From Candidatus Pacearchaeota archaeon (GTDB taxonomy: Archaea > Nanobdellota > Nanobdellia > Pacearchaeales > GW2011-AR1), in NCBI GenBank assembly GCA_023133415.1, contig JAGLWM010000004.1, forward strand, positions 3,574-67,573: DNA of 64,000 nucleotides, given 5' to 3'. Positions within the stretch are counted from its first letter, which is position 1. The number at the start of each line of letters is the position of its first letter. This document shows, one piece after another, positions 24,788 through 43,788 of this stretch. The notes below the pieces were generated by a model. That model worked only from the letters and a program-made list of their open reading frames with translations, searched no databases and was not told the DNA's origin. The position numbers and the translations under genes were made by a program.

Positions 24788-24790
24788 GGA

Positions 24791-25807: not shown

Positions 25808-25811
25808 GAAG

Positions 25812-26655: not shown

Positions 26656-26675
26656 ATGTTGTACTGTCTGTGTTT

Positions 26676-27194: not shown

Positions 27195-27225
27195 ATTGTA
27201 TTGTGATTTCTGAATTTAAAAAGCT

Positions 27226-27375: not shown

Positions 27376-27416
27376 TTTTATTATTATTTGATTATTGGGA
27401 CTGAATGATTTTAGAA

Positions 27417-29072
27417 TTATGCGGATGGCGTTCTTTTGGAAATTTTTACTATTAACACCAGGAAGATTAAAACCAGAAGTGCCACTATTCCGATGACTGT
27501 GTAGAATATCACATTGTTCATTTCTGAGGCAAATCCGAAGATTCCTGGTTTCTCTGTGATGTTTACGGAGATTGTTTGCTCATGCGAGGAGCCGTCTACT
27601 ATTGTGTTAATTTTGAATGATTGTGATCCTGCTTCCATAGGAGATAGTGTGATTAAGACTTCTTGAAATTCTCCTTTTTCAATCGAAGTAGTTTGCGGGT
27701 TGATGCTTACCATGCTTGCCCATGAGTCGAAATCAGAAGCCGATATTATGAAGTCATTGGTTTTTCCGTTGTTCGTTATCTTGGCTTTTACTACTAAGTC
27801 TTGACCTACTTGAGCCGAGGATTCTAAGTTTGCTGTAATTGTCGGGGTTGGAGCTTTGCATCCTAATATATTTAGTCTGATTGATGTGTCGGAAGTTTCT
27901 TCGTCGTATGACAATGGGTCTTCGTCGTCTTCGTCGTCATCCCAGTCAAAACTTACTATTACATCTAGAGTGTATTTTTCTTTGCTTAGTTCTGATGGAA
28001 TATTTATGAAGAATGTTATCACTTCTCTGTCGCCGTTATCTAGGTCGTCGATTATTATGTATTCATCAATTCCCATTTCTGAATCATAAAGATTTACTAG
28101 GATTTTTTCTTCGTCATCTTCTCCTAGATTGTAGACTGGTATTACAATTTCTAGGTTTTGTTGACCGCAGTATGTGTTGATTATGTTTTCGAATTCCGAG
28201 CCTCTTACTACTATTGATTCTTCGTAATCTACTGATTCAACTGTGAACTCAAAGTAGTAGTCTCCGCTGTCTATTTCAGATGCGCATTGGTTTGCTTCAT
28301 TACCATCTTCATAGGCCATTATGTACATATAGTATGTTCCGTCGTCTAGGTCTGAAGGTAATTCATCAATTATGAATGTTACTGTTTCTTGATCTCCGTC
28401 TTTTAATTTTCCTATGTCATCTAGCACTTCGTCGTCTATATCGAAGTCATTTGTTATATCGTTTCCGTCGTCTTCTATTTTATTGTCTAGTATCATTATC
28501 ATCACTTCTACATCTTCGATGTCGTCATCATTGTCTGTATTTTCTACTTCTACTTGGATTTCGATTTGGTCTAGGTATTGCCATTCGTCGTCTTTGCCTT
28601 CTCCGTTATTGTTTACATCGAAGTCTGTGATTTCTAGTTTGCCTTTTTCAGTATAGCCTTCTAGTTCGCAGAGGGTGTCGGATGTTGGAGTTACCTGAAA
28701 GTTAACCTGTTCTGATATGACATACAGTTCAGTTAAAGTTGAGGCATCATATACATGTGCTTTTATTGTGACAGAAGTCCCACTTGTGGGAATTGTAAGG
28801 TTGAATCCTGAAACTGTATGACTATTCCCTGCGGTATAATTATTCGCCTCGGCAAGACTTGTGATTCTTTCGGGATTTGTAGTAGTCCAGTTAACATAAA
28901 CTTCATTAGTTTCGTTAGATGTAAGATTAACTGTAAATGGAATAATGTCTCCAGCTTCACCAATTAATGTTCCTCCAATAATATCGAGTTGGAACTCTGT
29001 TGCACTTGTAATTCCAAAGCTTAATAATAAAACTACAAGAATTCCTAAGGATGCAAACATCTTTTTTGCCAT
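27417..29072 (-). CDS. acidic cell-surface protein with signal peptide and C-terminal TM + basic tail (candidate archaeosortase substrate)
   Basis: MAKKMFASLGILVVLLLSFGITSA. D/E-rich beta-rich modules and many N-x-T/S sites. C-terminus KPGIFGFASEMNNVIFYTVIGIVALLVLIFLVLIVKISKR. Confidence 0.7.
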   Translation of the reverse strand: MAKKMFASLGILVVLLLSFGITSATEFQLDIIGGTLIGEAGDIIPFTVNLTSNETNEVYVNWTTTNPERITSLAEANNYTAGNSHTVSGFNLTIPTSGTSVTIKAHVYDASTLTELYVISEQVNFQVTPTSDTLCELEGYTEKGKLEITDFDVNNNGEGKDDEWQYLDQIEIQVEVENTDNDDDIEDVEVMIMILDNKIEDDGNDITNDFDIDDEVLDDIGKLKDGDQETVTFIIDELPSDLDDGTYYMYIMAYEDGNEANQCASEIDSGDYYFEFTVESVDYEESIVVRGSEFENIINTYCGQQNLEIVIPVYNLGEDDEEKILVNLYDSEMGIDEYIIIDDLDNGDREVITFFINIPSELSKEKYTLDVIVSFDWDDDEDDEDPLSYDEETSDTSIRLNILGCKAPTPTITANLESSAQVGQDLVVKAKITNNGKTNDFIISASDFDSWASMVSINPQTTSIEKGEFQEVLITLSPMEAGSQSFKINTIVDGSSHEQTISVNITEKPGIFGFASEMNNVIFYTVIGIVALLVLIFLVLIVKISKRTPSA

Positions 29073-29140
29073 GTTGTAATTTTAGGATTACTACACTTTA
29101 TAAAGATTTCTATGATTGTTAGATAATTGGGCTTTTGTAA

Positions 29141-29786
29141 TTAAAGAGTTGCATTCCTGTTTCCCAATAAGACTTGGCCAGAATAGTTGTTCCAAAGAAT
29201 TTCTGCAATTGCTTGAGAATCTTTGTCTCCTCGAATTAATGCCTTTTTGATGCCTTTTAATATAGCTCTTTTGGAATTATCGTTTGCTTGCTTGGCGGTA
29301 TGACCTTTTATTATTCCTATGGGTAGCTGATTTGAAGTCTTAAAGAAAATTTCTGCGATTTTATCTTTTATTGGATTCGTCGCTCTTGTTGTGTCCATTA
29401 AGAACATGAATGGAATATTGTATCCTATGAAGCAACTTTTTTCGTCTTCATTATAGCAATTTCCCAGTCCTGCAGCAGCCCAGCAAGACCTTGCATAAGT
29501 TATTCTATTATTTAAGATACTGTCATTTTCTCCTTTTTTTTATTATTGTTTTATTTTGATGTCCTGTAACACGATTTTCTTCGCCATGTCCATTGAGGAT
29601 AATAAAATTATAATCATAACTTTTTATCGAGGATTCAAATTCTGTTTTATTAGCTTTTTCTTTTTTTAGTTCGTGAAAATTTATAGACCTTTTCTTGCAT
29701 TCATTGATTATAGGTTTGGAAAAAACTGCAAGATATTCTGTGACATCATCAGATTGTGGGAGAGTTATGATTAGACCTTTTTTCAT
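29141..29786 (-). pseudogene. clan CD (caspase/gingipain-like) cysteine peptidase-like gene interrupted by a frameshift at an A8 run
   Basis: ORF 29523..29786 ends ..ILNGHGEENRVTGHQNKTIIKKRRK*. The next frame continues KKGENDSILNNRITYARSCWAAAGLG.. into ORF 29141..29407. Deleting one A in the run at 29534-29541 joins them. Confidence 0.5.
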
Positions 29787-30040
29787 TATACTGTATTTAG
29801 GGCGGTTGTTAATTGACCTGTTGCTTGGGCTCTCATGAAATTAAGATGAGTTTGGATAATCCTTTTACCTATATTATCTCCTCCCATAACGTGTTCTATC
29901 ATTTGATTCTTGGTTAGGCTTCCATCTGAACCGATAGAGAGTTTTAGTGTTGATGACATACTTGCCTCAATTCTAGCAACAACTAATTTTTTCAATGTTT
30001 CATTTAGCTCTTTTTCTTTAGAAATAATATTTTTGTTCAT
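29786..30040 (-). CDS. hypothetical small protein
   Basis: 84-aa ORF overlapping both neighbours by 1-4 nt. AT-rich cassette. Confidence 0.45.
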   Translation of the reverse strand: MNKNIISKEKELNETLKKLVVARIEASMSSTLKLSIGSDGSLTKNQMIEHVMGGDNIGKRIIQTHLNFMRAQATGQLTTALNTV

Positions 30041-30222
30041 ATTATTTTTAGTTCTGAAAGAGTATTTAAAAGTTTTTCTGAGAGTTTGGTATTATTTTTA
30101 ACTTCAAAATAGGTTGAGTCCCATGTGTAAGTCTTTTCGTCTGCAATAATAATGATTTCTTTTCGCAATGAGTTTGGAATATCTGCGTAGGCACTAAGAA
30201 ATTTTTCCCTTAATTGTTCCAT
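30037..30222 (-). CDS. hypothetical small protein
   Basis: 61-aa ORF, first gene of the 3-gene cassette. Confidence 0.4.
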   Translation of the reverse strand: MEQLREKFLSAYADIPNSLRKEIIIIADEKTYTWDSTYFEVKNNTKLSEKLLNTLSELKII

Positions 30223-30345
30223 GTAATACGGATGCTATCAATCTTTAAAACTCTTCGCATATTTGTTTTTTTAGATTTTATGAAGATTTAATAATTGGGC
30301 TTTTGTTATCGTTAAGTTTAAATATTATATTCTCGTCGGAAAATT

Positions 30346-30432
30346 ATGGTAAATAAAATTTTGGAGGCAGGTTTTTTAGATTATGCAATGACATCCATTC
30401 TTGCGGATCAAAAAACTAAAGTTTTTTGCTAA
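30346..30432 (+). CDS. 28-codon leaderless small ORF/uORF ending in TAATG overlap with the next gene
   Basis: TATA gtttaaatatta at 30316-30327 lies about 25 nt upstream of ATG 30346. MVNKILEAGFLDYAMTSILADQKTKVFC*. Confidence 0.35.
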   Translation: MVNKILEAGFLDYAMTSILADQKTKVFC

Positions 30433-30800
30433 TGGTAAGGTCGAAGGAGAATCTGGTTGGGGCGTATGCGTTTTTGATTGGTGTGGTTTTGGCTGTTATA
30501 TTTGGGTTGTTCAATGAGTCATTGGAGCAAGCTGGAGGGTTATTTTATTCGGCACTTGTTTTGATTGGTTTGGTTGTTGGTTTTATGAATACTAGTGATC
30601 GTGACTCGGGGACTTTTTTGTTGGCAAGTGTTTCTTTGGTAATTGTTGCTGCACTTGGGATGGAGCCTTTGAAATATATTGCTTTGAATAATCTTGTTGT
30701 TGATTCGTTGCGGAATGTTTTGGGTAGTCTATTGTTGTTGTTTGTTCCGGCGACGATTATTGTTGCATTGAAAAGTGTTTTTGCTATGGCGAAGATTTAG
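30432..30800 (+). CDS. small integral membrane protein
   Basis: MVRSKENLVGAYAFLIGVVLAVIFGLF.. has 4 hydrophobic helices. Confidence 0.65.
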   Translation: MVRSKENLVGAYAFLIGVVLAVIFGLFNESLEQAGGLFYSALVLIGLVVGFMNTSDRDSGTFLLASVSLVIVAALGMEPLKYIALNNLVVDSLRNVLGSLLLLFVPATIIVALKSVFAMAKI

Positions 30801-30804
30801 GGGA

Positions 30805-30835
30805 GCGAAGCAAAGCTTCGCGTTGTCGGTTTTTA
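30805..30835 (+). terminator. hairpin + T-tract terminator-like module
   Basis: gcgaagc-aaa-gcttcgc, then gttgtcggttttt. The loop differs from other copies but the stem is kept. Confidence 0.45.
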
Positions 30836-30846
30836 GTAGTTGGTTT

Positions 30847-31095
30847 TTAGTAGTGTGTTGCACTCTTAGTTCGCGCGATTTGTTCGGCTTTTTGAGTTAT
30901 TGAGAATGAGGATGTTTCTAAGGAGGATGTTTCTAAAAGATGGAGGGAAGTTTTGAGAGGATCTGGTATAAATCTTATTGATGTCCATTCTCCTCTTTGG
31001 TTTTGGAGTCGTAATGGATTCTTGTTTGAGTTATAAAAATAGAGCATACTGATTCCATAATAGACCGTAGTTTTTTCAATACCACATCTTCTCAT
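30847..31095 (-). CDS. doubtful small ORF
   Basis: 82-aa ORF whose C-terminal third is encoded by repeat modules. Confidence 0.2.
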   Translation of the reverse strand: MRRCGIEKTTVYYGISMLYFYNSNKNPLRLQNQRGEWTSIRFIPDPLKTSLHLLETSSLETSSFSITQKAEQIARTKSATHY

Positions 31096-31779: not shown

Positions 31780-31822
31780 AAAATAATATAGGGGAAGTGG
31801 TTTTTAAGTTTTTAAGAATTTG

Positions 31823-32062
31823 GAATCGTTCGATTTCGTCAGGCTCTTTCTTTTTTAGAAAAAAAGAAATTCCCTGGAAGTAGAAAAAACTATAATTCCA
31901 ATGCTTCGCATTGGTTTTGACGAAATCTTTTTAGAATCGTTCGATTTCGTCAGGCTTTTTCTTTTTTAGAAAAAAAGAAATTCCCTGGAAGTAGAAAAAA
32001 CTATAATTCCAATGCTTCGCATTGGTTTTGACGAAATCTTTTTAGAATCGTTCGATTTCGTC
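31823..32062 (-). repeat. 111-bp tandem repeat (2 full copies + partial) that includes the last about 20 nt and stop codon of sepF
   Basis: gaatcgttcgatttcgtc recurs at 31823, 31934 and 32045. The unit contains tttctttttt-aga-aaaaaagaaa and ccaatgc-ttc-gcattgg hairpins, closed by tttcgtca/tgacgaaa. Confidence 0.9.
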
Positions 32063-32529: not shown

Positions 32530-33084
32530 CTATTTCCAAACTTCGTAGATTTTACCCTGATATATTTTATGAATCGCTTTGTCTAATCTTTCTGAGCTAA
32601 TATCTGAAATTAAAATTTTGTCTTGTGATAATTTGTCTGATTGAAATGGACCGGCCCAAAATGGATTATAATTCTTTGTGAGATGTTCTATTATAGCATC
32701 TTTTTCTGCCCCATTTCCTTGGTGGGACATTTCTAAGGTGTATAGTGTTTCTTTATTAGAAAGAATGGATATTGGTTCATTATAATTAAATCTGGCAAAC
32801 CATTGACTCTTCAGCAGTAAATCATTAAAAGGATCAGGAAAGTTATTGAATCTTAATCCCTTATGAAATTTTCCTTGTTGTATTATTCTGCACATATTCT
32901 CAAGAGATAAATTGTAAGATAATTCTCTGCCGGTTATGTCTTTATTACAAACAATAAGAAAAGACTTATTATGATTTTCAATTTTTCCTCGAAGGAGATA
33001 GTTCTCCATCATTGTTTCGGGAACAAAGGTTTGTTCTTTAAAATCAAAAAGATATTCTTTCTGATTATTTTCTTTTCTAGCCAT
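32530..33084 (-). CDS. hypothetical protein
   Basis: 184-aa ORF, AT-rich, no recognisable motif. Confidence 0.5.
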   Translation of the reverse strand: MARKENNQKEYLFDFKEQTFVPETMMENYLLRGKIENHNKSFLIVCNKDITGRELSYNLSLENMCRIIQQGKFHKGLRFNNFPDPFNDLLLKSQWFARFNYNEPISILSNKETLYTLEMSHQGNGAEKDAIIEHLTKNYNPFWAGPFQSDKLSQDKILISDISSERLDKAIHKIYQGKIYEVWK

Positions 33085-33510: not shown

Positions 33511-33648
33511 TTAATCTGAGCTTACGGTTTTCATTTTAGTTCGTGGTTTGTAAAAAATTCTTGAGCCACATTCTGGACAGACAAATCGTTTTTTTAAGTC
33601 TTTCGACTTTAGTTTATTCCCACAGTGAAAACATTTGTATTCTGCCAT
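33511..33648 (-). CDS. rpoP: DNA-directed RNA polymerase subunit P (Rpo12)
   Basis: Below the track cut-off. MAEYKCFHCGNKLKSKDLKKRFVCPECGSRIFYKPRTKMKTVSSD with CxxC..CxxC..IFYK. Confidence 0.7.
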   Translation of the reverse strand: MAEYKCFHCGNKLKSKDLKKRFVCPECGSRIFYKPRTKMKTVSSD

Positions 33649-33649
33649 T

Positions 33650-33880
33650 TTATTTCTTAGTTTTTTGGTTTTTTAAATGATACGCTCCGGATGCGAATTC
33701 TCTTTTGCATTTTACGCAGTTCCAGATGGATTTGACTTTTCGTTTTACATGACCTTTGCAGAATGGACATTCCTGTTTGACTCGCTGCTTTCTTTCTACG
33801 GCTATGAGTTTTTGCTTTATCTTACCATAACCTGCGCCTAATCTTCCTGCGCTTCCGATTTTTTTTCTTTTTACTGCCAT
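33650..33880 (-). CDS. rpl37ae: 50S ribosomal protein L37Ae (eL43)
   Basis: KKIGSAGRLGAGYG..CPFCKG..WNCVKCKREFASGAY. Confidence 0.85.
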   Translation of the reverse strand: MAVKRKKIGSAGRLGAGYGKIKQKLIAVERKQRVKQECPFCKGHVKRKVKSIWNCVKCKREFASGAYHLKNQKTKK

Positions 33881-34122: not shown

Positions 34123-34755
34123 TTATTTCTTTTCTGTTTCTACTTCGGCTTCGACTTTCTTTTCTTCTTCGGCTGCCTTTTCTGCGTCTTCAGCCTTCTT
34201 GATTTCTTCTTGTTTTGCGGTAATCGTTGCAAAGTAATCGTCTAATATTTTTCGTTTTTCTGGATCAATTTCTGTTTTTTTGGCTGAAATTTCTTCTGCA
34301 AATTTTCCTTCGTTAATCTCTTGCATAATTTCTCTTGTTTCCTTGTTCTCGATTAATATGCCTAAAGCTTGACATGTTCCAATTACGGATTTTAGCGTTG
34401 CCATAAAATCGTTTGAAAGCATTGAATCGTGTTTCGCTTTTGCTACTGCAATTACTTGTTCAATTGCAAAGTTTCCGACTCGTTGTTTTAATCTTGCGCT
34501 GGATGCTTTTTCTATTCCGAGTTCTTTTTTGATTAATTCTGAAGTTGGTGGGGACAATACCTTGATTGAAACTTCTTTTGTGTCAGGGTCAATTGTTAGA
34601 TGAACCGGAAGTGTTACGCCTTTGAATTCTTGTGTTGCCGCATTTATGTCGGAGATTACCTGTCCTATGTTGATTCCCATTGGTCCGAGTTGTTGTGCCA
34701 CGGCTGGACCTGGTGTCATGTTTCCGCCTTCGACTAATAATTTAATAATTGCCAT
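34123..34755 (-). CDS. rpl11: 50S ribosomal protein L11 (uL11) with Lys/Glu/Ala-rich C-terminal extension
   Basis: KLLVEGGNMTPGPAVAQQLGPMGINIGQVISDINAAT..; tail ..KKAEDAEKAAEEEKKVEAEVETEKK. Confidence 0.85.
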   Translation of the reverse strand: MAIIKLLVEGGNMTPGPAVAQQLGPMGINIGQVISDINAATQEFKGVTLPVHLTIDPDTKEVSIKVLSPPTSELIKKELGIEKASSARLKQRVGNFAIEQVIAVAKAKHDSMLSNDFMATLKSVIGTCQALGILIENKETREIMQEINEGKFAEEISAKKTEIDPEKRKILDDYFATITAKQEEIKKAEDAEKAAEEEKKVEAEVETEKK

Positions 34756-34756
34756 G

Positions 34757-34838
34757 ATTTCTTTCTTTTTAGAAAAAATAAATTTCTCGCAAGTAGAAAA
34801 ACTTTTCTTCCAAAACTTCGTTTTGATTTAATTCCATG
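34757..34838 (-). mobile_element. 82-bp hairpin element between duplicated CATG sites at the rpl11 start; encodes a 22-codon uORF
   Basis: CATG at 34753-34756 and 34835-34838. TATA (rc of gtttaaaaga, 34858-34867) lies about 25 nt upstream of the distal ATG. uORF MELNQNEVLEEKFFYLREIYFF*, with its stop 13 nt before the rpl11 ATG. Confidence 0.7.
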
Positions 34839-34871
34839 CTAAATTTTTGAGGAGTTAGTTTAAAAGATTAA

Positions 34872-35546
34872 CTACTCTTCGTCTTCGAGTTCCTCCCTTC
34901 TGATTACTCTGATGTTATCTAATTTTACTGTAACTGGAATTGGTACTGCTGCTCCCAAAAGAGATACAACACATTCGTTCTTTGGCTTGTCGACTCGAAC
35001 GACCTTTGCCTTTTCGTTTTTGAATGGTTCGGAAATAATTTCTATGATGTCATTCTTTTCAATTTTGATATCGGCTGCCACTGGCTCTAGCATTTGTTTG
35101 ACTTTGTCATATGTTACAGTTTCGCCGATGATTCCTTTAACATATGGTAGATTGAATACTGCGTCTTCTGCACATTTGTGATCTGGGGATTCTAGGAAAA
35201 TGTAGCCTCGTAGTCCGTGAGGTCGTGCGATTGCGTAGATTTCGATATTCTTTTTCTTAACTTTGTCTGCAATCATTTCTATGGCCTTGTCTTCTTTATT
35301 TGTTGTAACTTTTACGATGTAGATTTGTGAGTCGAATTTTCTTTTTGGTTTTTCTTCTATTCCAGCTTCTTTTTCAATCTCTTTTTCTTCTTCTTCTAGT
35401 TCTACTGCTGGTTCTGTATCGACTTTTTCTTCAGGGATTAGAGATGGTGAAATTGCTCCTTTGATTTTTGGAGCGAAGGTTTCTTCGGTTGCGAGGCTAT
35501 CGTCCTCTTCGAGGTAGTCGAATTCATCGTCATATCCAATTGCCAT
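34872..35546 (-). CDS. spt5: transcription elongation factor Spt5 (NusG) with acidic N-terminal extension
   Basis: NGN + KOW: IYIVKVTTNKEDKAIEMIADK..LRGYIFLES..KNDIIEIISEPFKNEKAKVVRVD. The first roughly 70 aa are D/E-rich. Confidence 0.8.
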   Translation of the reverse strand: MAIGYDDEFDYLEEDDSLATEETFAPKIKGAISPSLIPEEKVDTEPAVELEEEEKEIEKEAGIEEKPKRKFDSQIYIVKVTTNKEDKAIEMIADKVKKKNIEIYAIARPHGLRGYIFLESPDHKCAEDAVFNLPYVKGIIGETVTYDKVKQMLEPVAADIKIEKNDIIEIISEPFKNEKAKVVRVDKPKNECVVSLLGAAVPIPVTVKLDNIRVIRREELEDEE

Positions 35547-35547
35547 G

Positions 35548-35629
35548 ATTTCTTTCTTTTTAGAAAAAAGAAATTTCTCGCAAGTAGAAAAACTTTTCTT
35601 CCAAAACTTCGTTTTGATTTAATTCCATG
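35548..35629 (-). mobile_element. second copy of the start-codon element (spt5)
   Basis: CATG at 35544-35547 and 35626-35629. TATA-like tcataaaaat at 35646-35655. uORF MELNQNEVLEEKFFYLREISFF*. Confidence 0.7.
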
Positions 35630-35716
35630 ATTTGTTTGCACTAGTTCATAAAAATCTAAGAACTAGATATAATTTATTGAAAGTTTGGGTTTAAAAAAGT
35701 TTTGGTGTTCGAAATT

Positions 35717-35899
35717 TTAGAAGGCTAGTTTCATTACAATGGAAATTGCGAAGCCGACTGCGCCTATCACGAGGAGTCCGATAGCAGAGACTTTTGAGAT
35801 TGTTTTGAATTCTTCCATTGTCGGTTTTTTTAGAAGACGCCAGACTCGGAGATACTTGTGATATTGGGACGAGATTTTTCGGGATAGTTTTTTTATCAT
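35717..35899 (-). CDS. secE: protein translocase subunit SecE (Sec61 gamma)
   Basis: 60 aa, LKKPTMEEFKTISKVSAIGLLVIGAVGFAISIVMKL. Conserved ftsZ-secE-spt5-rpl11 order. Confidence 0.75.
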   Translation of the reverse strand: MIKKLSRKISSQYHKYLRVWRLLKKPTMEEFKTISKVSAIGLLVIGAVGFAISIVMKLAF

Positions 35900-35928
35900 A
35901 TAATTAGATAAATTGTTGGTTTTTAAAA

Positions 35929-37041
35929 TTATTCCTCGAAGAATTCGATTCCGAGTTCTCCTTCTATGTCTTTTCTTCGGGCTTCTTCGATTGGGAGTCT
36001 CTCGCCTGAAATTTGCGGGGATTTTACTCCTGTTATTATAACCATTACTTTTAGAGATTTTTCTAGATCTTTTGAAATTTGTGCTCCTGAGATTAGCTTT
36101 GCGTCTGGGGAAAGTTGTTCGCCTATTTTTTGGATGACCTGTTTGTATTCGTCGAGAGCCAGGTCTGTTCCGCCGATTACGTTTACTAGAGCGCCTTGAG
36201 CATTTTTTATATCGACGTCTAAAAGTGGGTTGTTTAGCGCCTTGTCGACTGCTTCTGCGGCTCGGTCGTTTGAATCGGATTCGCCCATGCCGATTAGTGA
36301 GACTCCACCATTTGCCATGATTGCTTTGATGTCTGCAAAGTCTAGGTTGACTAGTCCCGAGGATGTTACTAATTCGGTGATTCCTTTGACTGCATTTGTT
36401 AGGATTTCGTCAGCGACTTTGAATGCTGTTGGTAGAGGTAGATCTGGTGCGAGGTCTAGGAGTTTGTCGTTTGGGATTACGATTAGTGTGTCGACGATTC
36501 CTTCCATTCTTTCGAGTCCTTCCATCGCGTTTTCAATTCGTTTTGCGCCTTCAACGGTGAAGGGTAGGGTTACGACTCCGATTACTAGGGATCCTTGTTT
36601 TTTTGCCATTTCGGCTACTACTGGGGCTGCTCCTGTTCCGGTTCCGCCTCCGAGTCCACATGTTACAAAGATTAAATCTGAATTGGAAAGTTTTTTCTTG
36701 ATGTCTTGTGCCTGTTCTTTTGCGGCTTCGGCTCCGATTCGTGGATTTGATCCAGCACCTAGACCTTTTGAGATTTCTCGTCCGATTAGAATTTTTTGGT
36801 CAGCATTTGCATATAGAAGATCTTGTGCGTCGGTGTTTATTGCGATTATTTCTCCTCCCTTAATTCCAATTTCGCGCATTCGGGATGTTGTGTTTCCGCC
36901 TCCTCCGCCGACTCCGATGACTTTGATTCTTGCGGATTGTTTTTTGAGAATTTGCTCCAGTTCTTTGTCTATCTCGGCGTTTGTATTGGGCTGTGAGATT
37001 GATTGCATCTCTGGGATATCATCTCTTAGTATGTCTTCCAT
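35929..37041 (-). CDS. ftsZ: cell division GTPase FtsZ
   Basis: VIGVGGGGGNTTSRM and GLGGGTGTGAAPVVA tubulin signature. Confidence 0.95.
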   Translation of the reverse strand: MEDILRDDIPEMQSISQPNTNAEIDKELEQILKKQSARIKVIGVGGGGGNTTSRMREIGIKGGEIIAINTDAQDLLYANADQKILIGREISKGLGAGSNPRIGAEAAKEQAQDIKKKLSNSDLIFVTCGLGGGTGTGAAPVVAEMAKKQGSLVIGVVTLPFTVEGAKRIENAMEGLERMEGIVDTLIVIPNDKLLDLAPDLPLPTAFKVADEILTNAVKGITELVTSSGLVNLDFADIKAIMANGGVSLIGMGESDSNDRAAEAVDKALNNPLLDVDIKNAQGALVNVIGGTDLALDEYKQVIQKIGEQLSPDAKLISGAQISKDLEKSLKVMVIITGVKSPQISGERLPIEEARRKDIEGELGIEFFEE

Positions 37042-37042
37042 G

Positions 37043-37125
37043 GATTTCTTTCTCTTTAGAAAAGAGAAATTTCTCGCAAGTAGAGAAACTTAAATTCCAA
37101 AACTGCGTTTTGATTTAATTCCATG
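37043..37125 (-). mobile_element. third copy of the start-codon element (ftsZ), with compensatory change in the TAGA-loop hairpin
   Basis: CATG at 37039-37042 and 37122-37125. TATA tttataatta at 37146-37155 lies 26 nt upstream of the distal ATG. uORF MELNQNAVLEFKFLYLREISLF*. Confidence 0.7.
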
Positions 37126-37175
37126 AGATAAAAGGTGGATTTGGGTTTATAATTATTTGTGGGATTGGGTGGATA

Positions 37176-38096
37176 TTAAAGGTGTTTTGCAATGTCCTCT
37201 AATATTTCATGACCAGCCCTAACTCTTGCCTCTGACGTTTTTTGCCCTGTAATTGTTCTTCCTATAACTTCTATATCCGAACCATCTTGGGCAGCATTTC
37301 CTGGAGTAAAGACTCTTTTTTGATCTTCTCCTGCGGGGGTATTCGGTCCTTTTATTCCTGGAGTTACAAACATAAAATTACTAGGCATTTTGTCTTTTAC
37401 TGCGTATAAATCTGCTGCAGAACAAACAATCCCATCGAGACCTGCGTTGTGAGCCATTTTTGCATAATTTAAAACGGAGTCAGGAACTATATCGTCTAAA
37501 TTCAATCTCTTTAGCAGGGAGTCGAACGGGTTTCCATATACTTCCAAAAAAAGTTTTTGAAGTTTAAGTTTTTCATATTCATTTTTTTCTTCTCTAATTC
37601 TTATATCGGCATTAATCGCTTGTGAAAATGGGAAATTGCATAATTCCGTTCTTGTCTTTTCATATAGTGACCCTACCGGCAATTTTTCTATTATTGGAAG
37701 TGTATTTTGTATGTATCTTAGATTATCAAGACTAGTAAGAATAGTAACTGCTGTTATTTTTGGAGTCACTGTTCCATATTGTTTTGTTCCTTCCATTGCA
37801 CCTTTAACTGCTGCCTGCATCATCTCTTGACCTCCCGAGGCATGAACATTAAACATATAGACTCCTAATTGAGCTGCGGCATTTGCAGCCCCCCTTACAG
37901 TATTTGGGATATCGTGATATTTTAAGTCCAAAAAAACATCCGCCCCATATTCTTGAACCATTTTTATTGCATCTGGTCCAAATCTAGTATAAGTTTCTTT
38001 GCCAACTTTAAATAATCCAACTACCGGACTTAATTCCTTAACTCTATTTTCTGCGGCATTCATAGTTGACAAACCATCAAGTGGCATGCAAACCAT
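37176..38096 (-). CDS. pyrF: orotidine 5'-phosphate decarboxylase
   Basis: FLDLKYHDIPNT, FNVHASGG. Start uncertain (38096, 38132 or 38159). Confidence 0.8.
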   Translation of the reverse strand: MVCMPLDGLSTMNAAENRVKELSPVVGLFKVGKETYTRFGPDAIKMVQEYGADVFLDLKYHDIPNTVRGAANAAAQLGVYMFNVHASGGQEMMQAAVKGAMEGTKQYGTVTPKITAVTILTSLDNLRYIQNTLPIIEKLPVGSLYEKTRTELCNFPFSQAINADIRIREEKNEYEKLKLQKLFLEVYGNPFDSLLKRLNLDDIVPDSVLNYAKMAHNAGLDGIVCSAADLYAVKDKMPSNFMFVTPGIKGPNTPAGEDQKRVFTPGNAAQDGSDIEVIGRTITGQKTSEARVRAGHEILEDIAKHL

Positions 38097-38100
38097 TTTT

Positions 38101-38949
38101 CTAGCTTGTTGTTGTTTTGCTGTTAATTTCATTTTGAGATAGAAGCTCTTTGGGTACATTTAATTTTTGTAATCTATCCGTAAGCTCTTCTTTTAAATAG
38201 GGATAGCCTACTCTTAAAATCTTTTGACCCTTTCTTAAAGTTTTTTTATCCATTAATATTTTTTTTAGTTTTTGGACTCCCGCGTCACTTCTTAACATTT
38301 TTTCTGCCCAAGAATCTTTATCTTCCATTCTCGCTTTAAGATTCCAATAACAATCATTATTAACCGCACCCTTGGCGTATAAGTAATCCCATGCATGTCC
38401 ATCCAATTTGACAACTGCATGACCTTTGAGACCAAGATTTTCTACCACTTGAACTCCATTTTCCATTCTTTCTACATAAAAGAAAACATCTGATATTTCG
38501 CCTCCAGCTTTTTTTATTATTGGTATCCAATAATCTCTAACGGATGACCCTTCATTATTTAAATCTGCAACATGCAAAATTCTTTTTCCAGCCATAGAAG
38601 CCCCTACAGTCTTTTCGTTTTTATATAACATAACATGAGCTTTTGAAATGTCGTGGTCTCTTACAAGATTATTGACCACTAAATTTGAAAATATCCAATC
38701 CCTCGTTTCGCCTCCAGATATAATATCTATTTTATCCAAGGAAACTGTATCATGAATTAAGTCTGTCATATCTCTTGCAGCTGATGCATAATTTCTTCCG
38801 TTATTCATAACCGCTCCACTTTGAACAAAATATGGACCTATTTTCCCGGAAGTGTATGGAAAAAAAGTATCCGTAAAGTCGAATCCGTCATTCGTTACGA
38901 GAATATTAAGATTTTTCTCTTGTAATTTTTTTTTATTGGCCATAGGCAA
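38101..38949 (-). CDS. phosphoribosyltransferase-fold protein, PyrE-like paralog
   Basis: FPYTSGKIGPYFVQSG.., ISGGETRDW, RILHVADLNNEGSS (PRPP-loop-like). Confidence 0.55.
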   Translation of the reverse strand: MPMANKKKLQEKNLNILVTNDGFDFTDTFFPYTSGKIGPYFVQSGAVMNNGRNYASAARDMTDLIHDTVSLDKIDIISGGETRDWIFSNLVVNNLVRDHDISKAHVMLYKNEKTVGASMAGKRILHVADLNNEGSSVRDYWIPIIKKAGGEISDVFFYVERMENGVQVVENLGLKGHAVVKLDGHAWDYLYAKGAVNNDCYWNLKARMEDKDSWAEKMLRSDAGVQKLKKILMDKKTLRKGQKILRVGYPYLKEELTDRLQKLNVPKELLSQNEINSKTTTS

Positions 38950-39004
38950 ATTTTAGGAAATCAAGTTTTTAAGAATTTATATATTAAATTAATAGAGTTA
39001 TTTT

Positions 39005-39251
39005 TTCTTTTCTTCAACAACTTCGCTCTCTACTTTCAATCCTAATATTTCCTCGAATTTTGGTGAGAACATTTTTATGAATTGCTCGGCTTCTTTTGGT
39101 ACTTTGAATGTGATTGTTTTTTCTTTGACTTCGTAGTCAAATATCTGTTGGAATAAAAAATCTTGAAGTGCGTTGATTTTTTCTTTTTGGTCGGTTATGA
39201 TTTTATTGATTTTGAATGAACATGCATATGGAGATAATCTTTGTGACCACT
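39005..39251 (-). pseudogene. chimeric gene fragment: FKBP C-terminal tail fused to a pyrF N-terminal scrap
   Basis: 39005-39214 is identical by eye to 43805-44014 (3' end of the FKBP gene). 39215-39251 matches 42755-42791. Confidence 0.8.
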
Positions 39252-39413: not shown

Positions 39414-42362
39414 ATGGTGAGTAAAAAAAGATTTTTTGTTTTAGGCATAATGTTTTTGTTTGCTTTGAGTTTTATTTCTTCTTCATCAACAGGTCTTAAA
39501 ATCCTCCCGCCTGATAATGGTATTTATTTAGGGTCTTATGATTTTGATAATGGTCTTGATGTATTTGAACAGGCAATTGGAAAAAAAGTGGCGATTGCTC
39601 CAAATGTCTGTTTTAATGCAGAAGCTACTATTCCTAAATTTGATATCAATTGCTATGAAAAATTATATCAGAAGGGCTATGTAAGTGTCTTTGGTTTTGA
39701 GGGTACTCCAGATCCTAAAAATCCAAATCCAAACAAGGGAGACTTTACTTCTCAACAAATAATTGATGGGGATGCAGATTATATTTTTCAAGATATGGCA
39801 AAAGATATTAAACAATTTGGCAAACCAATTTTTTGGGATTATCCAAGGGAGCCAAGGGTTCAACCAGGTTTTGGTTATGATGGTGGGGGTTATGGACATA
39901 AAGCTGATGAAACTTATAGTGAAGTTTTAGAAAGAGGGGGCAATCCTAAAGCAGAATACGGTAATACTAATGCACTTGATGGACCAGAACGCTACAGAGA
40001 TATGTGTAGGCATATTCATGATGTGGTTGAAGCAGAATGTTCTGGCTGTGTAACTTGGATTATGGGAGCCATAATAAACGACGTGCAGGTATTTGGAGTA
40101 AATAGCAAGTCTCAACTTCCTCCTCCACTTAATGAATTGACTTATATTGATTTTTATCCTGGTGATAATTATGTAGACTGGCATGCTATTGATATCTACA
40201 GTTCGAGTCTGGAAACAGGTGTTAATATGGATTTTGATTCATCTGCTGGTGAATCATTTCAGGAAATTATTGCTGTAAGTTCCAATAAGCCAATTATGAT
40301 ACTGGAGTTTGGAGTATTTGATTCAGTTAATGATAGATCAAATTGGTTTAAAGATTTTTTTAATCATGTGAAAAATGATCCTAAAAAGAAAGGTTATGAC
40401 AAAATAGGTGCATTTAATTATTGGCAAATGGGTGTAAATGTATTTGATGATATGATATTCAATATGTATACTAGAATTAATTCAACATACCCCTCCGCCC
40501 AAGCATGGCAAACGGAAATTCAGGCAAATTCTAATTTTTGGATTTCAAATGTGAATACTGGAACGCCACCAACAAAAACCTGCTCCCAACAAAACGGCTA
40601 CATCTGTTCGGCTTCTGAAACTTGTTCCGGAAATTGGCTGACAGCTTCGGATACAAGTAGGTGTTGTGATGTGGAGTGCAGTTCTTCGTCGAGCATAACC
40701 AAAACTTCAGGAACATACACCTGTCTCACTTGCGCCAAAGCGCATCACTGGGAGATTGATGAAAATCATATGCTTTGGTGGGACAACCAGCCATATATCC
40801 CTTATGGAGGATTTGGAGTGCAGAGCATTAATAATCAATTTGGTATCACTGATTTCAACAATTGGATTGATAGGGAGAATAACAATGATCCAGCATATAT
40901 CCAGCAACATATTAAAGATTTTGATAAATGGACTACAGAGATTTCTGATGGTGGTGGGACTTATATTATTCAGTGGTCTATAAATAGCCCTCCAAATAAT
41001 GATGCTTCAAAACTTGCAGACCCAAGTGTTAAGCAGCAGATAGTTGATGAATGGAAACTTTATGTTCCAGCAGTGGCAAAAGAGGGGCTTAGAGGAATGG
41101 TAATCTGGAACGAAATTGATGTTGATTTTAGCTGGCCAAATACTTTTACTAATGATGAATATGGAAACATTTTGGGGGAATACGCCAAAGAATTAAAAAA
41201 TATGGTTGGTGATGTGCCAATTTCGCTTAAGGCGACAGGGAGTTTTATTTACGGATACGGGAAAGTGAATCCGGTTGTTGCAGGAGCAACAAATGAATAT
41301 GCCGGAGGGTTGGGATTTGATATATTCCCAACAACATGTAGTAGTTCAAATTTTGATTCAGTAAGTCAAATCAAAACAAAAATAGAACAAAATCAGAAAA
41401 AAACAACATGGTTTTGGATTGCTGAATTTGGAGTTGGAAGAGAGGAAGGTGAAATAGAGGGAGAATTAGGGTGTTATTGGGATAGTTTCCCACCGTTTCA
41501 GTCTAAACAGGATATGAAGTGTTATTTGGAAAATTTAGTTAATGCTGGTGCCAAAGGATTTATTTACAATGGTCCAAATAGTGTTCAAAACCCTGCTGGT
41601 TGCGAGCAAAGTTATTATCAAAGTTATGTCTGGTATTCAGAATTAAAGAATGAGATTATTCAAAAAACGATCTCAACGAATAATAAAGAGACCTGCAACA
41701 ACAACGGAATTTGCGAAGCTCATCTGGGAGAAACTCAACAGAATTGCCAGAGTGATTGCGAAGAAATAAATGAACACGAAGGAGAAACGGGAGAGATAAC
41801 AAGTTCTCAATGCTACACTGATTGTATGGCAGAAGCAGGAAATACAGATGCTGGTTGCAAGAGTTGGTGTAGTGGTCAAGGCACAGAAGAACAAGAAGGA
41901 GAAGTTAGCAATAGTGAAAGTGAGAATGGAGAAAAAGATAAAAGTTTTTTTGGAAAAATTATTGATTGGATAAAAAGAATTTTATTTGGAGAAAGTAATA
42001 AAGATGTTGAGAAAATAGAATACGAAATTCAAGAAAACGAAGATCAAACAGGTGAGAATGAAGATCAGCTTAATGGAATAAGAGAAAGTGATGAGTTAGT
42101 TTCTGAAAGCGGTAGAGTAATTTCTAATCAATGCTACACTGATTGTATGGCAGAAGCAGGAAATACAGCAGATTCATGTCGTGCTTGGTGTGATAGAGAA
42201 GAAGTTAGTGAAGAAGGCGAAGAAGAACCTGGCAAGGAAGAAGATATTACTCAAACACAATGCTACACTGGTTGTATGGCAGAAGTAGGAAATACCGATG
42301 CTGGATGCAGAAACTGGTGCAATAGTCAAAGTGATGAAGATTTTGCTGAAGAGATAGGATAA
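39414..42362 (+). CDS. secreted two-domain glycoside-hydrolase-like (TIM-barrel) protein with three C-terminal 4-Cys repeats
   Basis: Signal peptide MVSKKRFFVLGIMFLFALSFISSSS. PIMILEFGV and WFWIAEFGV nucleophile-like motifs. (S/N/T)QCYT(D/G)CMAE(A/V)GNT..(G/S)C(K/R).WC occurs three times. Base composition differs from the flanks. Confidence 0.6.
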   Translation: MVSKKRFFVLGIMFLFALSFISSSSTGLKILPPDNGIYLGSYDFDNGLDVFEQAIGKKVAIAPNVCFNAEATIPKFDINCYEKLYQKGYVSVFGFEGTPDPKNPNPNKGDFTSQQIIDGDADYIFQDMAKDIKQFGKPIFWDYPREPRVQPGFGYDGGGYGHKADETYSEVLERGGNPKAEYGNTNALDGPERYRDMCRHIHDVVEAECSGCVTWIMGAIINDVQVFGVNSKSQLPPPLNELTYIDFYPGDNYVDWHAIDIYSSSLETGVNMDFDSSAGESFQEIIAVSSNKPIMILEFGVFDSVNDRSNWFKDFFNHVKNDPKKKGYDKIGAFNYWQMGVNVFDDMIFNMYTRINSTYPSAQAWQTEIQANSNFWISNVNTGTPPTKTCSQQNGYICSASETCSGNWLTASDTSRCCDVECSSSSSITKTSGTYTCLTCAKAHHWEIDENHMLWWDNQPYIPYGGFGVQSINNQFGITDFNNWIDRENNNDPAYIQQHIKDFDKWTTEISDGGGTYIIQWSINSPPNNDASKLADPSVKQQIVDEWKLYVPAVAKEGLRGMVIWNEIDVDFSWPNTFTNDEYGNILGEYAKELKNMVGDVPISLKATGSFIYGYGKVNPVVAGATNEYAGGLGFDIFPTTCSSSNFDSVSQIKTKIEQNQKKTTWFWIAEFGVGREEGEIEGELGCYWDSFPPFQSKQDMKCYLENLVNAGAKGFIYNGPNSVQNPAGCEQSYYQSYVWYSELKNEIIQKTISTNNKETCNNNGICEAHLGETQQNCQSDCEEINEHEGETGEITSSQCYTDCMAEAGNTDAGCKSWCSGQGTEEQEGEVSNSESENGEKDKSFFGKIIDWIKRILFGESNKDVEKIEYEIQENEDQTGENEDQLNGIRESDELVSESGRVISNQCYTDCMAEAGNTADSCRAWCDREEVSEEGEEEPGKEEDITQTQCYTGCMAEVGNTDAGCRNWCNSQSDEDFAEEIG

Positions 42363-43727: not shown

Positions 43728-43788
43728 ATTCTATTAGTTTATCAGAAAAATTGGGTTTATAATAATTATTGGGATTGAGTTTGCGATA

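Follow-up and report, generated by a model that had tools for sequence, protein, structure and literature searches.

A putative mobile cassette at the start codons of DPANN archaeal genes

Cassette copies in the window

The genes rpl11, spt5, and ftsZ each have a short repeat on the minus strand directly 5' of their ATG in the window, which is the 64,000-nt stretch of Pacearchaeota DNA that was analyzed (Table 1). Measured from the A of their own ATG to the last base before the gene ATG, the three repeats are 82–83 nt long and 94–99% identical. The first-pass annotation had described them as lying between two CATG tetranucleotides, and this arrangement was confirmed for all three. Over an enclosing 92-nt repeat, the rpl11 and spt5 copies have 99% identity; they differ at one position in the 85-nt model alignment and have a common linker, GAAGAAAAG, that was seen in no further copy. 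A search with the two halves of the consensus (28 and 41 nt, up to three mismatches) recovered all three copies, with none expected from 100 dinucleotide shuffles. The trio is far beyond chance.

Table 1. Cassette copies, promoter elements, and an empty site in the window
Feature	Position	Strand	Description
Empty site	33646–33652	−	rpl37ae stop/rpoP start, TAA-A-ATG
Copy 1	34756–34837	−	rpl11 start; 82 nt, T-type; covariance model 102.5 bits
Copy 1 parts		−	own ATG 34835–34837; 22-codon ORF with stop 34769–34837; gene ATG 34753–34755
TATA-like octamer CTTTTAAA	34859–34866	−	centre 25.5 nt upstream of cassette ATG, rpl11 copy
Copy 2	35547–35628	−	spt5 start; 82 nt, T-type; covariance model 110.5 bits
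Copy 2 parts		−	ORF 35560–35628; gene ATG 35544–35546
Weaker TATA-like stretch ATTTTTAT	35648–35655	−	centre about 23.5 nt upstream of cassette ATG, spt5 copy
Copy 3	37042–37124	−	ftsZ start; 83 nt, C-type, hairpin 3 compensated; 107.7 bits
Copy 3 parts		−	ORF 37056–37124; gene ATG 37039–37041
TATA-like octamer ATTATAAA	37146–37153	−	centre 25.5 nt upstream of cassette ATG, ftsZ copy
Expanded copy	54615–54833	−	219 nt; G+C-rich inserts in hairpins 2 and 3; covariance model 42.4 bits
Expanded copy parts		−	67-codon ORF 54630–54833; adjoins ATG 54612–54614 of gene 53142–54614
Relic copy	48688–48753	−	about 70% identical; hairpins kept via compensatory changes; 52.8 bits
Relic pair	31838–31925, 31949–32036	−	diverged; repeat family D13; away from any start codon; 55.2 and 53.0 bits

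The covariance model has seven matches in the window, and four of them are start-associated copies. Four minus-strand copies, one expanded and three diverged relics, had been overlooked in the first pass. In the expanded copy, 15 nt separate the stop of the reading frame from the ATG of a gene whose product reads as AMP/thymidine-phosphorylase-like, judged from its sequence and not from a family search; the ortholog of this gene in L060 is likewise occupied. The single relic lies about 105 nt upstream of gene 48215–48568, today served by a TATA box of its own at −26.5, and orthologs of this gene in L003, L023, and L076 have a cassette right at the ATG. A 111-nt tandem duplication encloses the relic pair and takes in the final 21 nt of a SepF-like gene as well; hairpin 1 of the pair is compensated (CAAUGC/GCAUUG).

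Distribution, ends, and hairpins of the family

The cassette is found across DPANN archaea and is almost always joined to a gene start. A scan with a pattern for the 5' half, in which no 3' context was presupposed, found copies in nine species-representative DPANN genomes and 63 true metagenome loci, in records labelled Nanoarchaeota, Pacearchaeota, or Woesearchaeota. The covariance model has 90 matches in the fetched loci besides those in the window. Among 72 distinct copies 70 are evaluable, and 66 of these adjoin a gene ATG in the sense orientation; three adjoin another copy, and one is an exception. Orientation relative to the flanking ATG is uniform in all copies. Genes with roles in translation, transcription, and cell division are strongly favored downstream of the cassette, a bias not predicted by neutral tolerance of the insertions and a point against the mobile-relay explanation given below. 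Some genes are occupied in several genomes (spt5 in six, S3Ae and aIF2-alpha in five each), and L041 has cassettes at three consecutive junctions of rpoE'-spt4-S24e-S27ae.

The ends of the cassette share an ATG and little else. Nearly every copy has an ATG at both ends, a few (in L029, L044, and L060) lacking the 5' one, and the adjoining bases differ between the ends. The 4-bp CATG target duplication is not supported as proposed: the base before the 5' ATG is unconserved, the fourth base is unmatched between the ends, and no duplication beyond the ATG was found across the family. The shared ATG fits a 3-bp duplication and an element-borne ATG alike. Terminal inverted repeats are absent from the consensus: only 6 of 11 positions agree when the 5' end GAATTAAATCA is compared with the reverse complement of the 3' end GATTTCTTTCT. 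The inverted repeats that the consensus contains are internal hairpins. In the genome and metagenome scans, no match to the 5' motif lay more than 222 nt from its 3' end.

Three hairpins are supported by covariation. Their positions are paired in 98.4% of cells, and 13 of the 21 pairs change on both sides; none of 500 shuffles reached these values, and slid controls paired at 48–73%. Hairpin 2 contains U-G pairs (41 UG and 28 CG) that are compatible with pairing on the sense strand only, which places the hairpins on the mRNA strand. Hairpin 1 starts 9 nt past the 5' ATG and hairpin 3 ends 6–8 nt ahead of the 3' ATG. The stems are near-invariant in sequence, with few subfamily haplotypes, and variable expansions are limited to loops. 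The compensatory pair noted earlier in the ftsZ copy is present (UUUCUCUUU/AAAGAGAAA versus UUUCUUUUU/AAAAAGAAA), and the TAGA-loop hairpin described with it covaries across the family. Searching the whole window against Rfam at the gathering score gave no match except two tRNAs, and a search of 34700–37200 with E up to 10 gave sub-threshold chance matches only.

Promoters, empty sites, and turnover

The spacing of promoter elements suggests that the cassette ATG has taken the place of the gene ATG. A TATA-like box 23–26 nt upstream of the distal ATG had been claimed for the window trio and was found for all three copies, in weaker form for spt5, where ATTTTTAT sits within a conserved inverted repeat, CTAGTTC...GAACTAG. 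Across the family, 60 distinct upstream regions were compared, and 23 of them have a TATA octamer, with at least seven of eight matches, centred at −25.5 or −26.5 from the cassette ATG; at a looser threshold this class includes 28 of 65 contexts. A location of the cassette ATG where transcription should start is supported by these sequences. The first-pass restriction to leaderless starts is not supported, since 21 copies, about a third, are operon-internal and their ATG adjoins or overlaps the upstream stop codon. The junctions are ATGA (nine cases, one of them GTGA), TAATG, or a cassette ATG 3–5 nt past the stop. In L041 the 5' ATG has become GTG precisely where it overlaps a TGA stop.

Comparison with relatives reveals precise insertion polymorphism. 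Four close relatives (L079–L082), with the same synteny and FtsZ 88–94% identical, have clean empty sites at rpl11, spt5, and ftsZ, and the spt5 site is empty in L002 too; the ftsZ ortholog in L035 is occupied. When the 52 kb of syntenic DNA of the four relatives (a 13-kb syntenic stretch) were scanned with the covariance model, no copy was detected. At the empty sites the distance from TATA box to gene ATG equals the distance from TATA box to cassette ATG in the window, and at ftsZ the empty site of L079 has the same promoter. Such empty orthologs had been suggested as a check on insertion at an ancestral leaderless start, and they support it. The reverse case is also found, as the rpl37ae-rpoP junction is empty in the window and has a cassette in L002 and L026. 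In all, empty and occupied orthologs with exact boundaries were paired at five sites, namely rpoP, spt5, rpl11, ftsZ, and the gap between SepF and dph2, where the pair rests on intergenic lengths (32–35 nt in L002 and L080) and not on an alignment.

Occupancy is patchy among sister lineages in the Spt5 and Rpl11 trees, with differences within four or more sister pairs at spt5 alone. A fixed leader of ancient origin, passed on by vertical descent and lost in some relatives with no mobility, would account for the same genes being occupied in distant genomes. Those sister pairs speak against it, and so do variants private to one genome, such as the near-identity and unique linker of the rpl11 and spt5 copies. 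Head-to-tail arrays of two or three copies that share a junction ATG (L017, L024) are also contrary to it. L022 and L056 have nearly identical flanks but about 17 differences in the 3' half of their cassettes, and near-identical strains hold different subfamilies at one site. Copy identity is also far above the neutral expectation. Vertical descent is a very improbable explanation.

The high identity of the copies has a bearing on function. Copies in different genomes are 85–99% identical, while fourfold synonymous sites of those genomes are only 30–76% identical, so that a purely selfish element must have spread recently or else the sequence is itself functional. The latter would be expected of a host regulatory leader, a structured 5' RNA bound by protein, small RNA, or ligand that co-regulates growth genes (ribosomal proteins, Spt4/5, FtsZ, aIF2-alpha, EF-1-beta, FttA, and ABCE1). 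Mobility would then merely assemble the regulon, and this could be compatible with a ribosome relay. Near-saturated synonymous sites beside conserved copies, three covarying hairpins expanded in loops only, occupation of the same gene families in many genomes with a bias to information processing, and low copy number (four start-associated copies in 64 kb, and four strict matches in the MAG SMBSF31 of about 0.8 Mb) are all in its favor. However, the nearest relatives lack the cassette at essential genes with nothing else changed, sister lineages differ, and tandem arrays occur. In addition the stems are near-invariant, unlike those of old riboswitches, which covary freely around a conserved core. 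The covarying structure of a 5' leader is present, but a match to a curated Rfam family and stable presence in orthologs are absent. Overall we regard a host regulatory leader as unlikely.

The short reading frame and a possible ribosome relay

The short reading frame is placed alike in most copies, and its peptide is not conserved. The 22-codon frame described earlier is present in all three window copies, with its stop 13–14 nt ahead of the gene ATG. The conserved peptide claimed for it is not supported, as other copies translate the same DNA in other frames (KSKRSFG... and ...LLARNFFFSKKERNQ), have 11–67 codons, or stop early. No conserved leader peptide or regulatory codons were found across the family copies, whose frames and lengths differ, making classical amino-acid-sensing attenuation unlikely. 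Counted from the gene ATG, the stop in most copies is at −16/−17, −2, +1, or +7 to +14. The gap between stop and start is usually 13–14 nt; in the other copies the stop overlaps the ATG (AUGA, UAAUG) or comes no later than +14. The tail AAAGAAAGAAAUC contains no GGAGG-like run. The earlier claim that the frame ends beside the gene ATG with no Shine-Dalgarno-like sequence ahead of it is supported, and the layout is that of termination-reinitiation.

Several features suggest that the frame is maintained. Inserts of 24, 27, 30, 54, and 69 nt preserve it, +1 and −1 changes offset one another in L006, L071, and L025, and no copy has the short frame fused in frame to the gene. Stops are missing from two of the three frames in each half of the cassette and from every frame in the G+C-rich inserts. 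Since this absence of stops is partly compositional, frame conservation is weaker evidence than it appears. Only three of about 20 length classes are multiples of three, against about 6.7 expected (P roughly 0.06, an estimate).

The cassette might instead be a tolerated selfish insert with an irrelevant short frame, the gene being expressed from an internal transcription start or by processing to a leaderless mRNA that begins at the proximal ATG. In five cases (L010, L069, L024, L038, and L054) the frame stops 44–94 nt before the gene ATG and the gene is still intact, which favors this explanation. Hairpin 3, close to the gene ATG, could mark a processing site, and the scarcity of stops is partly compositional. 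On the other hand, what lies 26 nt ahead of the proximal ATG is AAATTTCT and not a TATA box, and the external TATA box is positioned for the distal ATG in about 28 contexts. The retention of the 5' ATG nearly everywhere, its change to GTG exactly at the TGA overlap, insert lengths in multiples of three, and compensated frameshifts also argue against it. Tolerance of an insert with an irrelevant frame seems quite unlikely. The early-stop copies in L010 and L069 belong to one gene in two lineages.

The explanation that we consider probable is that the cassette is a non-autonomous mobile element of DPANN archaea, about 85 nt long, that inserts at start codons, relays ribosomes, and is repeatedly gained and lost. 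A copy would enter exactly at a gene ATG in the orientation of the gene, and its own ATG would replace that of the gene. At leaderless genes the cassette ATG would lie at the expected 5' end of the mRNA, about 26 nt downstream of the TATA centre, and in operons it would lie against or overlap the stop of the upstream gene. We infer that transcription begins at the cassette ATG and that ribosomes initiate there and translate the short frame through the three mRNA hairpins. They would terminate 13–14 nt ahead of the real ATG, in an overlap with it (AUGA or UAAUG), or a few codons beyond it. The gene ATG, which has no Shine-Dalgarno sequence, would then be translated by termination-reinitiation, and gene translation would depend on the short frame. 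With such a relay the insertion would hardly impair expression, and its persistence before essential, highly expressed genes would be explained. Individual start codons would gain and lose copies again and again, and gene conversion would swap segments among copies.

The cassette resembles several known systems. Like MITEs (Correia/NEMIS of Neisseria, ERIC, RUP, BOX, archaeal SM, and halophile MITEs), it is short, multi-copy, protein-free, and hairpinned, is insertion-polymorphic between relatives, has subfamilies, and is putatively co-transcribed with neighboring genes. Unlike MITEs, it lacks an autonomous relative in the DNA scanned, terminal inverted repeats, and a target duplication beyond the shared ATG; it is strictly in gene sense and on start codons, not scattered between genes, and it brings a start codon and a frame placed to pass ribosomes to the gene. 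Small dispersed repeats and MITEs have been reviewed (PMC2229807, PMC3184786). The cassette has subterminal hairpins near both ends and no inverted terminal repeats, as do IS200/IS605-derived PATEs and RAYT-mobilized REPs. As with these elements, insertion is strand-specific and seamless beside a very short conserved flank (the ATG), and the empty sites look like precise excision. However, neither PATEs nor REPs are reported on start codons or with a relay frame, and no pairing between guide and cleavage site could be demonstrated.

Other parallels concern translation and targeting. Rickettsia palindromic elements, reportedly described by Ogata et al. in 2000, are likewise selfish palindromes in reduced genomes and are translation-compatible within expressed units, but they lie in frame inside proteins, while the cassette stays a separate mini-frame ahead of the protein. 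Coupled gene pairs, reportedly studied in Haloferax by Huber et al. in 2019, and leaderless uORFs have the same layout, with a stop near or overlapping the next start, no Shine-Dalgarno sequence, and a leaderless first cistron; those are fixed and locus-specific, whereas the cassette arrangement is mobile. Ty3 of yeast targets transcription starts. Ty3 and TRE5-A of Dictyostelium direct their integration to a set distance from the initiation complex bound at a promoter and so avoid gene disruption in a dense genome, as the cassette would, but both are autonomous retroelements of eukaryotes that integrate at RNA polymerase III genes, and the cassette is also found at operon-internal start codons with no recognizable TATA box. 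Rickettsia palindromic elements are a topic of two papers (PMC2635572, PMC1779305), and translational coupling (PMC12548453), mycobacterial leaderless short ORFs (PMC4633059; preprint 10.1101/834739), and TRE5-A targeting (PMC3159450) are covered elsewhere.

A candidate for the mobilizing enzyme is a Y1 tyrosine transposase of the IS200/REP type, which would act on hairpinned DNA in single-stranded form. In a 2026 preprint, the REP-associated tyrosine transposase (K07491) is reported to be the sole transposase KO with strict matches in 256 Nanobdellota proteomes. No autonomous partner with the same ends and no transposase was found in the contig fragments scanned. A phmmer search with IS200 and IS608 TnpA queries found no Y1 transposase in 2620 six-frame ORFs of these fragments, which is a weak negative.

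The first-pass annotation knew of no described element with such targeting, and our literature search likewise found no earlier description of a start-codon cassette of this kind. Tentatively, this may be the first known mobile element that homes to translation starts, translationally transparent through its own start codon and relay frame, and perhaps mobilized by a RAYT/IS200-type enzyme that works on DNA made single-stranded at promoters. If so, the cassette could recolonize the essential, highly expressed genes of a minimal genome over and over.

Cassette insertion at start codons

The cassette is a small mobile repeat of the non-autonomous kind, an approximately 85-nt structured sequence with its own ATG and a short reading frame, and its target is unusual and of biological interest. 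One sequence is present in three copies, immediately 5' of the start codons of rpl11, spt5, and ftsZ, as the first-pass annotation had reported. Their consensus is ATGGAATTAAATCAAAAC-GNA-GTTTTGGAA..AAGTTTYTCTACTTGCGAGAAATTTCTYTTTTCTAAARAGAAAGAAATC(C) followed by the gene ATG, and two halves of it (up to three mismatches) retrieve all three copies, with zero expected in shuffled sequence. The rpl11 and spt5 copies, which belong to the T-type subfamily, are 99% identical over the 92-nt repeat that contains them. Other features recorded at that stage are also present: the compensated hairpin in the ftsZ copy (C-type), a CATG on either side of each of the three copies, and in each an ORF of 22 codons that begins at the cassette ATG and ends 13-14 nt short of the gene ATG. 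Four further copies on the same strand had been missed.

Genes of the cassette stretch and additional cassette copies in the window
Feature	Position	Strand	Remark
rpl11	34123-34755	minus	gene in cassette stretch
spt5	34872-35546	minus	gene in cassette stretch
secE	35717-35899	minus	gene in cassette stretch
ftsZ	35929-37041	minus	gene in cassette stretch
expanded cassette copy, 219 nt	54615-54833	minus	adjoins ATG of gene 53142-54614
diverged relic	48688-48753	minus	away from start codon
diverged relic	31838-31925	minus	away from start codon
diverged relic	31949-32036	minus	away from start codon

Comparison with close relatives upholds the earlier proposal that the cassette was inserted at an ancestral leaderless start. 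The ftsZ neighborhoods of four relatives (loci L079-L082), whose FtsZ proteins are 88-94% identical to that of the window, share with it the gene order FKBP-ftsZ-secE-spt5-rpl11...rpl37ae-rpoP-prefoldin-SepF-dph2. A covariance model run without filters on 52 kb of these relatives found no copy, the best score being 19 bits versus 102-110 bits for the window copies. The search for empty orthologous sites that had been suggested for the ftsZ-secE-spt5-rpl11 loci was successful in all four: aligned at the rpl11, spt5, and ftsZ junctions, the relatives show clean gaps of exactly the ATG plus 82 or 83 nt. In the empty sites the spacing between the TATA-like box and the gene ATG equals that between the box and the cassette ATG in the window, and at ftsZ this places the start 20 nt after AATTATAAAC in both the empty and the occupied site. 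Among the other fetched genome and metagenome loci, the spt5 junction is occupied in L005 and L012, as in the window, and empty in L002. L002 and L026 have a cassette at the rpoP junction, which is empty in the window (GAAATAA-A-ATGGCAG).

The flanks of more than 70 copies refute the CATG target duplication that had been proposed. Any base can precede the 5' ATG in the family as a whole, and the fourth base of the cassette (G or A) does not match the fourth base of the gene. Judging from these flanks, the CATG sequences in the window are a coincidence of three sites. The cassette has no terminal inverted repeats, and ATG is the sole sequence common to both of its ends. A 3-bp duplication and a cassette bringing its own ATG would account equally well for this, and the ends cannot tell the two apart.

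In 23 of 60 distinct regions upstream of the cassette, a TTTAWAWA octamer (at least 7 of 8 matches) has its center 25.5-26.5 nt ahead of the A of the cassette ATG; under a less strict threshold, the TATA class comprises 28 of 65 contexts. Archaeal TATA boxes are generally centered about 26-27 nt upstream of the transcription start. Because of this spacing the mRNA is predicted to start at or next to the A of the cassette ATG, and the short frame would therefore be leaderless. Within the cassette, the sequence 26 nt upstream of the gene ATG is AAATTTCT, which is not TATA-like. In the 21 operon-internal contexts, the cassette ATG overlaps the upstream stop codon (ATGA, nine cases, one GTGA; or TAATG) or lies 3-5 nt downstream of it. 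In locus L041 a cassette is found at each of three successive junctions of rpoE'-spt4-S24e-S27ae.

Several other features were found near start codons in the window. Just upstream of the spt5 start is an inverted repeat, CTAGTTC-N12-GAACTAG (35641-35668, minus strand), that overlaps a TATA-like stretch. It is almost invariant in the ten genomes compared (including L002, L005, L012, and L079-L082), with or without a cassette, and may act as an operator or form a hairpin in the RNA. A 53-nt pattern around CACAAATAATTATAAACCCA, approximately 70% identical among its occurrences, recurs in the promoter regions of ftsZ (37118-37170), gene 42930-43727 (43728-43780), and gene 48215-48568 (48562-48614), which suggests a common strong-promoter architecture. 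A 50-nt upstream region repeated at 9734-9783, 9864-9913, and 10186-10235 ends in TTTTTTAGAGGAGG, 5-8 nt before an ATG; some genes of this organism therefore do have starts led by a Shine-Dalgarno sequence, unlike the cassette-bearing genes.

The window also contains other repeats and insertions. A 111-nt tandem duplication (31819-32040, 98% identical) comprises the last 21 nt of a SepF-like gene and a diverged cassette copy; in L002 and L080 the SepF-dph2 gap measures just 32-35 nt. The FKBP gene (43789-44442, minus strand) has its final 70 codons present three times in the window (39002-39214, 42542-42754, and 43802-44014; 100% and 83% identical). In the four relatives 51-72 nt separate FKBP from ftsZ downstream of it; in the window the distance is approximately 6.7 kb, and the interval accommodates, among other ORFs, a gene of the OMP-decarboxylase family (37176-38159) and one for a 982-aa secreted repeat protein (39414-42362). 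The arrangement looks like the outcome of serial integration at the FKBP 3' end with target duplication. Between prefoldin and SepF lies a 184-aa ORF (32530-33084) for which Pfam gave no convincing match. It is missing there in L080 and is apparently a lineage-specific insertion of a gene. Many G+C-rich hairpin repeats, a family separate from the cassette, lie between genes for secreted and membrane proteins at 16250-31000 (e.g., 21075-21105, 24786-24874, 27264-27369, and 30800-30891); they consist of GGGGAGCGAAGCTTTGCTTCGCG followed by TTTTTGG runs, and of TTGCGCTCTTAGTTCGCGC. A nucleotidyltransferase/HepT-like toxin-antitoxin pair and a homolog of the 23S rRNA intervening-sequence protein are encoded at 17580-18492 and 16389-16751.

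Family distribution and turnover

The cassette family was scanned for with patterns from the 5' half only, so that nothing was assumed about the 3' side. A scan of one genome per species gave 12 loci in nine DPANN MAGs (labeled archaeon, Nanoarchaeota, Pacearchaeota, and Woesearchaeota), and a metagenome scan gave 66 loci, three of which are chance matches in coding sequence. Many copies come from the sample series Ga0307928, Ga0075115-Ga0075125, and Ga0180007/Ga0180009. The viral contigs scanned had no match to the pattern, and a phage or virus origin was dropped. There are 72 distinct copies. Among the 70 that could be evaluated, all oriented in the sense of the gene, 66 adjoin the ATG of an ORF, three adjoin a head-to-tail neighbor copy, and one does neither. 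This sole exception to the start-codon position (L047, 1948-2302) comes after a tRNA-Ala gene and before three tRNA 3'-end fragments (cccgacaagtccat), repeats like those at mobile-element integration sites.

The cassette-bearing genes are mostly informational. Pfam identified FttA/aCPSF1, a DRG-type GTPase, aIF2-alpha, a ThrRS editing domain, L10e, S24e, S6e, EF-1-beta, Spt4, and ABCE1 downstream of cassettes, while rpl11, spt5, ftsZ, rpoP, S3Ae, and Nop10-like and thioredoxin-like proteins were recognized by reading the sequences. Other downstream genes encode a signal-peptide peptidase, an arginase-family protein, an RNase T-like exonuclease, and several unknowns. In L035 (155-2407) the ORF from the ftsZ ATG has 750 codons, about twice the usual FtsZ length, which could be a fusion or a missed stop.

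Occupied and empty states switch between sister lineages in neighbor-joining trees of Spt5 (L002-/L052+, L080-/L034+, L081-/L005+, and L079-/window+, where minus is empty and plus is occupied) and of Rpl11 (L081-/L025+ and L079-/window+); cassettes have thus been repeatedly gained or lost at the same start codons. Active targeting, for example of DNA opened at strong promoters, could explain this repeated use, as could selection that purges every other insertion.

Copies also exchange sequence. The linker GAAGAAAAG is common to the rpl11 and spt5 copies of the window and is seen in no other copy, which points to copying or conversion inside this genome. L022 and L056 have nearly identical flanks and identical cassette 5' halves. 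About 17 positions are different in the 3' 45 nt, which come from different subfamilies, indicating a conversion tract. Head-to-tail arrays with a common junction ATG (...GAAATCA|ATG|AAATT...) are found in L017 (three copies) and L024, and partial upstream copies in L010, L038, L050, and L053. In genome pairs whose orthologous proteins are 64-90% identical, identity is 30-76% at fourfold synonymous sites and 85-99% in the cassettes. This fits an active exchanging family, strong sequence constraint, or both. Identity of the upstream 60 nt was not used as a neutral control, since gap-tolerant alignment of A+T-rich DNA inflates the values.

Hairpins and the short reading frame

A covariance model trained on 40 copies gave 90 matches in the loci and has three hairpins: H1 (CAAAAC/GUUUUG), H2 (UUUYUC/GAGAAA, with the loop UACUUGC), and H3 (UUUCUYUUU/AAARAGAAA). 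In the alignment of these matches, which was fitted to the model and so favors the structure somewhat, 98.4% of cells are paired and 13 of 21 pairs have changes on both sides; none of 500 shuffles reached this, and slid controls were 48-73% paired. The relics in the window, which were outside the training set, retain hairpins by compensatory changes (H1 CAAUGC/GCAUUG and H3 CCUUUCUUU/AAAGAAAGG). In H2, 41 copies have U-G and 28 have C-G. Since U-G pairs on the sense strand only, the hairpins are those of the mRNA or of the DNA strand with the same sense.

Other structures were considered and rejected. For pairing of the H2 5' arm with the H3 3' arm, the three-way T/C/A-G correlation misfits the register and is better explained by two subfamily haplotypes. 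The ftsZ copy folds into a shape like that of a four-way junction, but ARAGORN calls no tRNA there, and the closing stem of such a cloverleaf depends on an upstream C that is not conserved in the family. Rfam had no match at the gathering score or at E values up to 10.

In many copies the H2 loop or H3 is interrupted by G+C-rich modules of 24-69 nt, each made of two hairpins (L001, L006, L009, L018, L020, L023, L034, L035, L048, L049, L054, L063, and window 54615-54833). Examples are UGCCUCAACAGAGGUAC-GCCAUUUUGGGCGGAA and UUGCCCGAAGGGUAC-UCGUGUAACGAG. GGUAC often lies between the two hairpins, and CGCC/GGCG covaries to CACC/GGUG. The modules may be a nested second small element or may bind protein.

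A functional conserved peptide was rejected because the reading frame varies among copies, and the 22-codon peptide first described is not general. In the T-type and C-type copies the peptide is MELNQN.VLE.KF.YLREIS.F. A subfamily with an additional T encodes ...FFLLARNFFFSKKERNQ and terminates at the UGA of AUGA, and other copies begin one base out of frame (MIIKSKRSFG...). The frames have 11-67 codons; counted from the gene ATG, their recurrent ends are at -16/-17, -2, +1, or +7 to +14. Early stops are found in L010 and L069 (the same gene), L024, L038, and L054.

Continuity of the open frame was first adopted as strong evidence of translation and then downgraded. Stops are absent from two of the three frames in both cassette halves and from all three in the G+C-rich inserts; continuity says little by itself because composition alone leaves two of three frames open. 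Other observations are suggestive of a translated short frame, though not conclusive. Insert lengths of 24, 27, 30, 54, and 69 nt are all multiples of three, except for one 41-nt module that contains a stop. In L006, L071, and L025, +1 and -1 changes offset each other. No copy fuses the cassette to the gene in frame, and the three length classes that are multiples of three each contain a stop.

Proposed mechanism, mobilization, and significance

The cassette position, promoter spacing, hairpins, and stop placement observed here are the starting point for a proposed mechanism. The cassette ATG would take over the position at which ribosomes start, which is the mRNA 5' end at leaderless genes and the upstream gene's stop codon within operons. 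Ribosomes would then translate through the hairpins, terminate beside the gene ATG, and reinitiate at that ATG with no Shine-Dalgarno sequence to guide them. From sequence we infer the transcription start, the translation of the short frame, and the reinitiation.

No transposase gene was found in the window or in the fetched loci, which are contig fragments. The cassette resembles the substrates of Y1 transposases (IS200/IS605-type or REP-associated) in its subterminal hairpins, lack of inverted ends, single orientation, seamless empty sites, and very short conserved flank. In a 2026 preprint, K07491 (RAYT/IS200-like) is reported as the only transposase KO with strict matches in 256 Nanobdellota proteomes. 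A Y1-type transposase is a lead for the mobilizer.

The closest known kinds of element are small dispersed repeats (MITEs and REP/PATE elements), Rickettsia palindromic elements, which survive through in-frame translation, and coupled gene pairs and leaderless upstream ORFs. Mobility, an exclusive start-codon position, and a relay frame are not united in any of them, and a literature search that included literal sequence strings found no description of such an element.

The cassette is a natural, portable test object for initiation on leaderless mRNA and for reinitiation after a short upstream frame, both of which are poorly understood. Dozens of different genes have the same 85 nt ahead of them, and relatives provide matched alleles that lack the cassette. 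In DPANN genomes, cassette sites may lead gene callers to annotate wrong starts or spurious small proteins. The cassette may also explain how leadered mRNAs and upstream ORFs originate from leaderless genes. If the proposed mechanism is true, mobile DNA can persist in a genome with hardly any room to spare by occupying start codons with the gene still translated, and not by avoiding genes.
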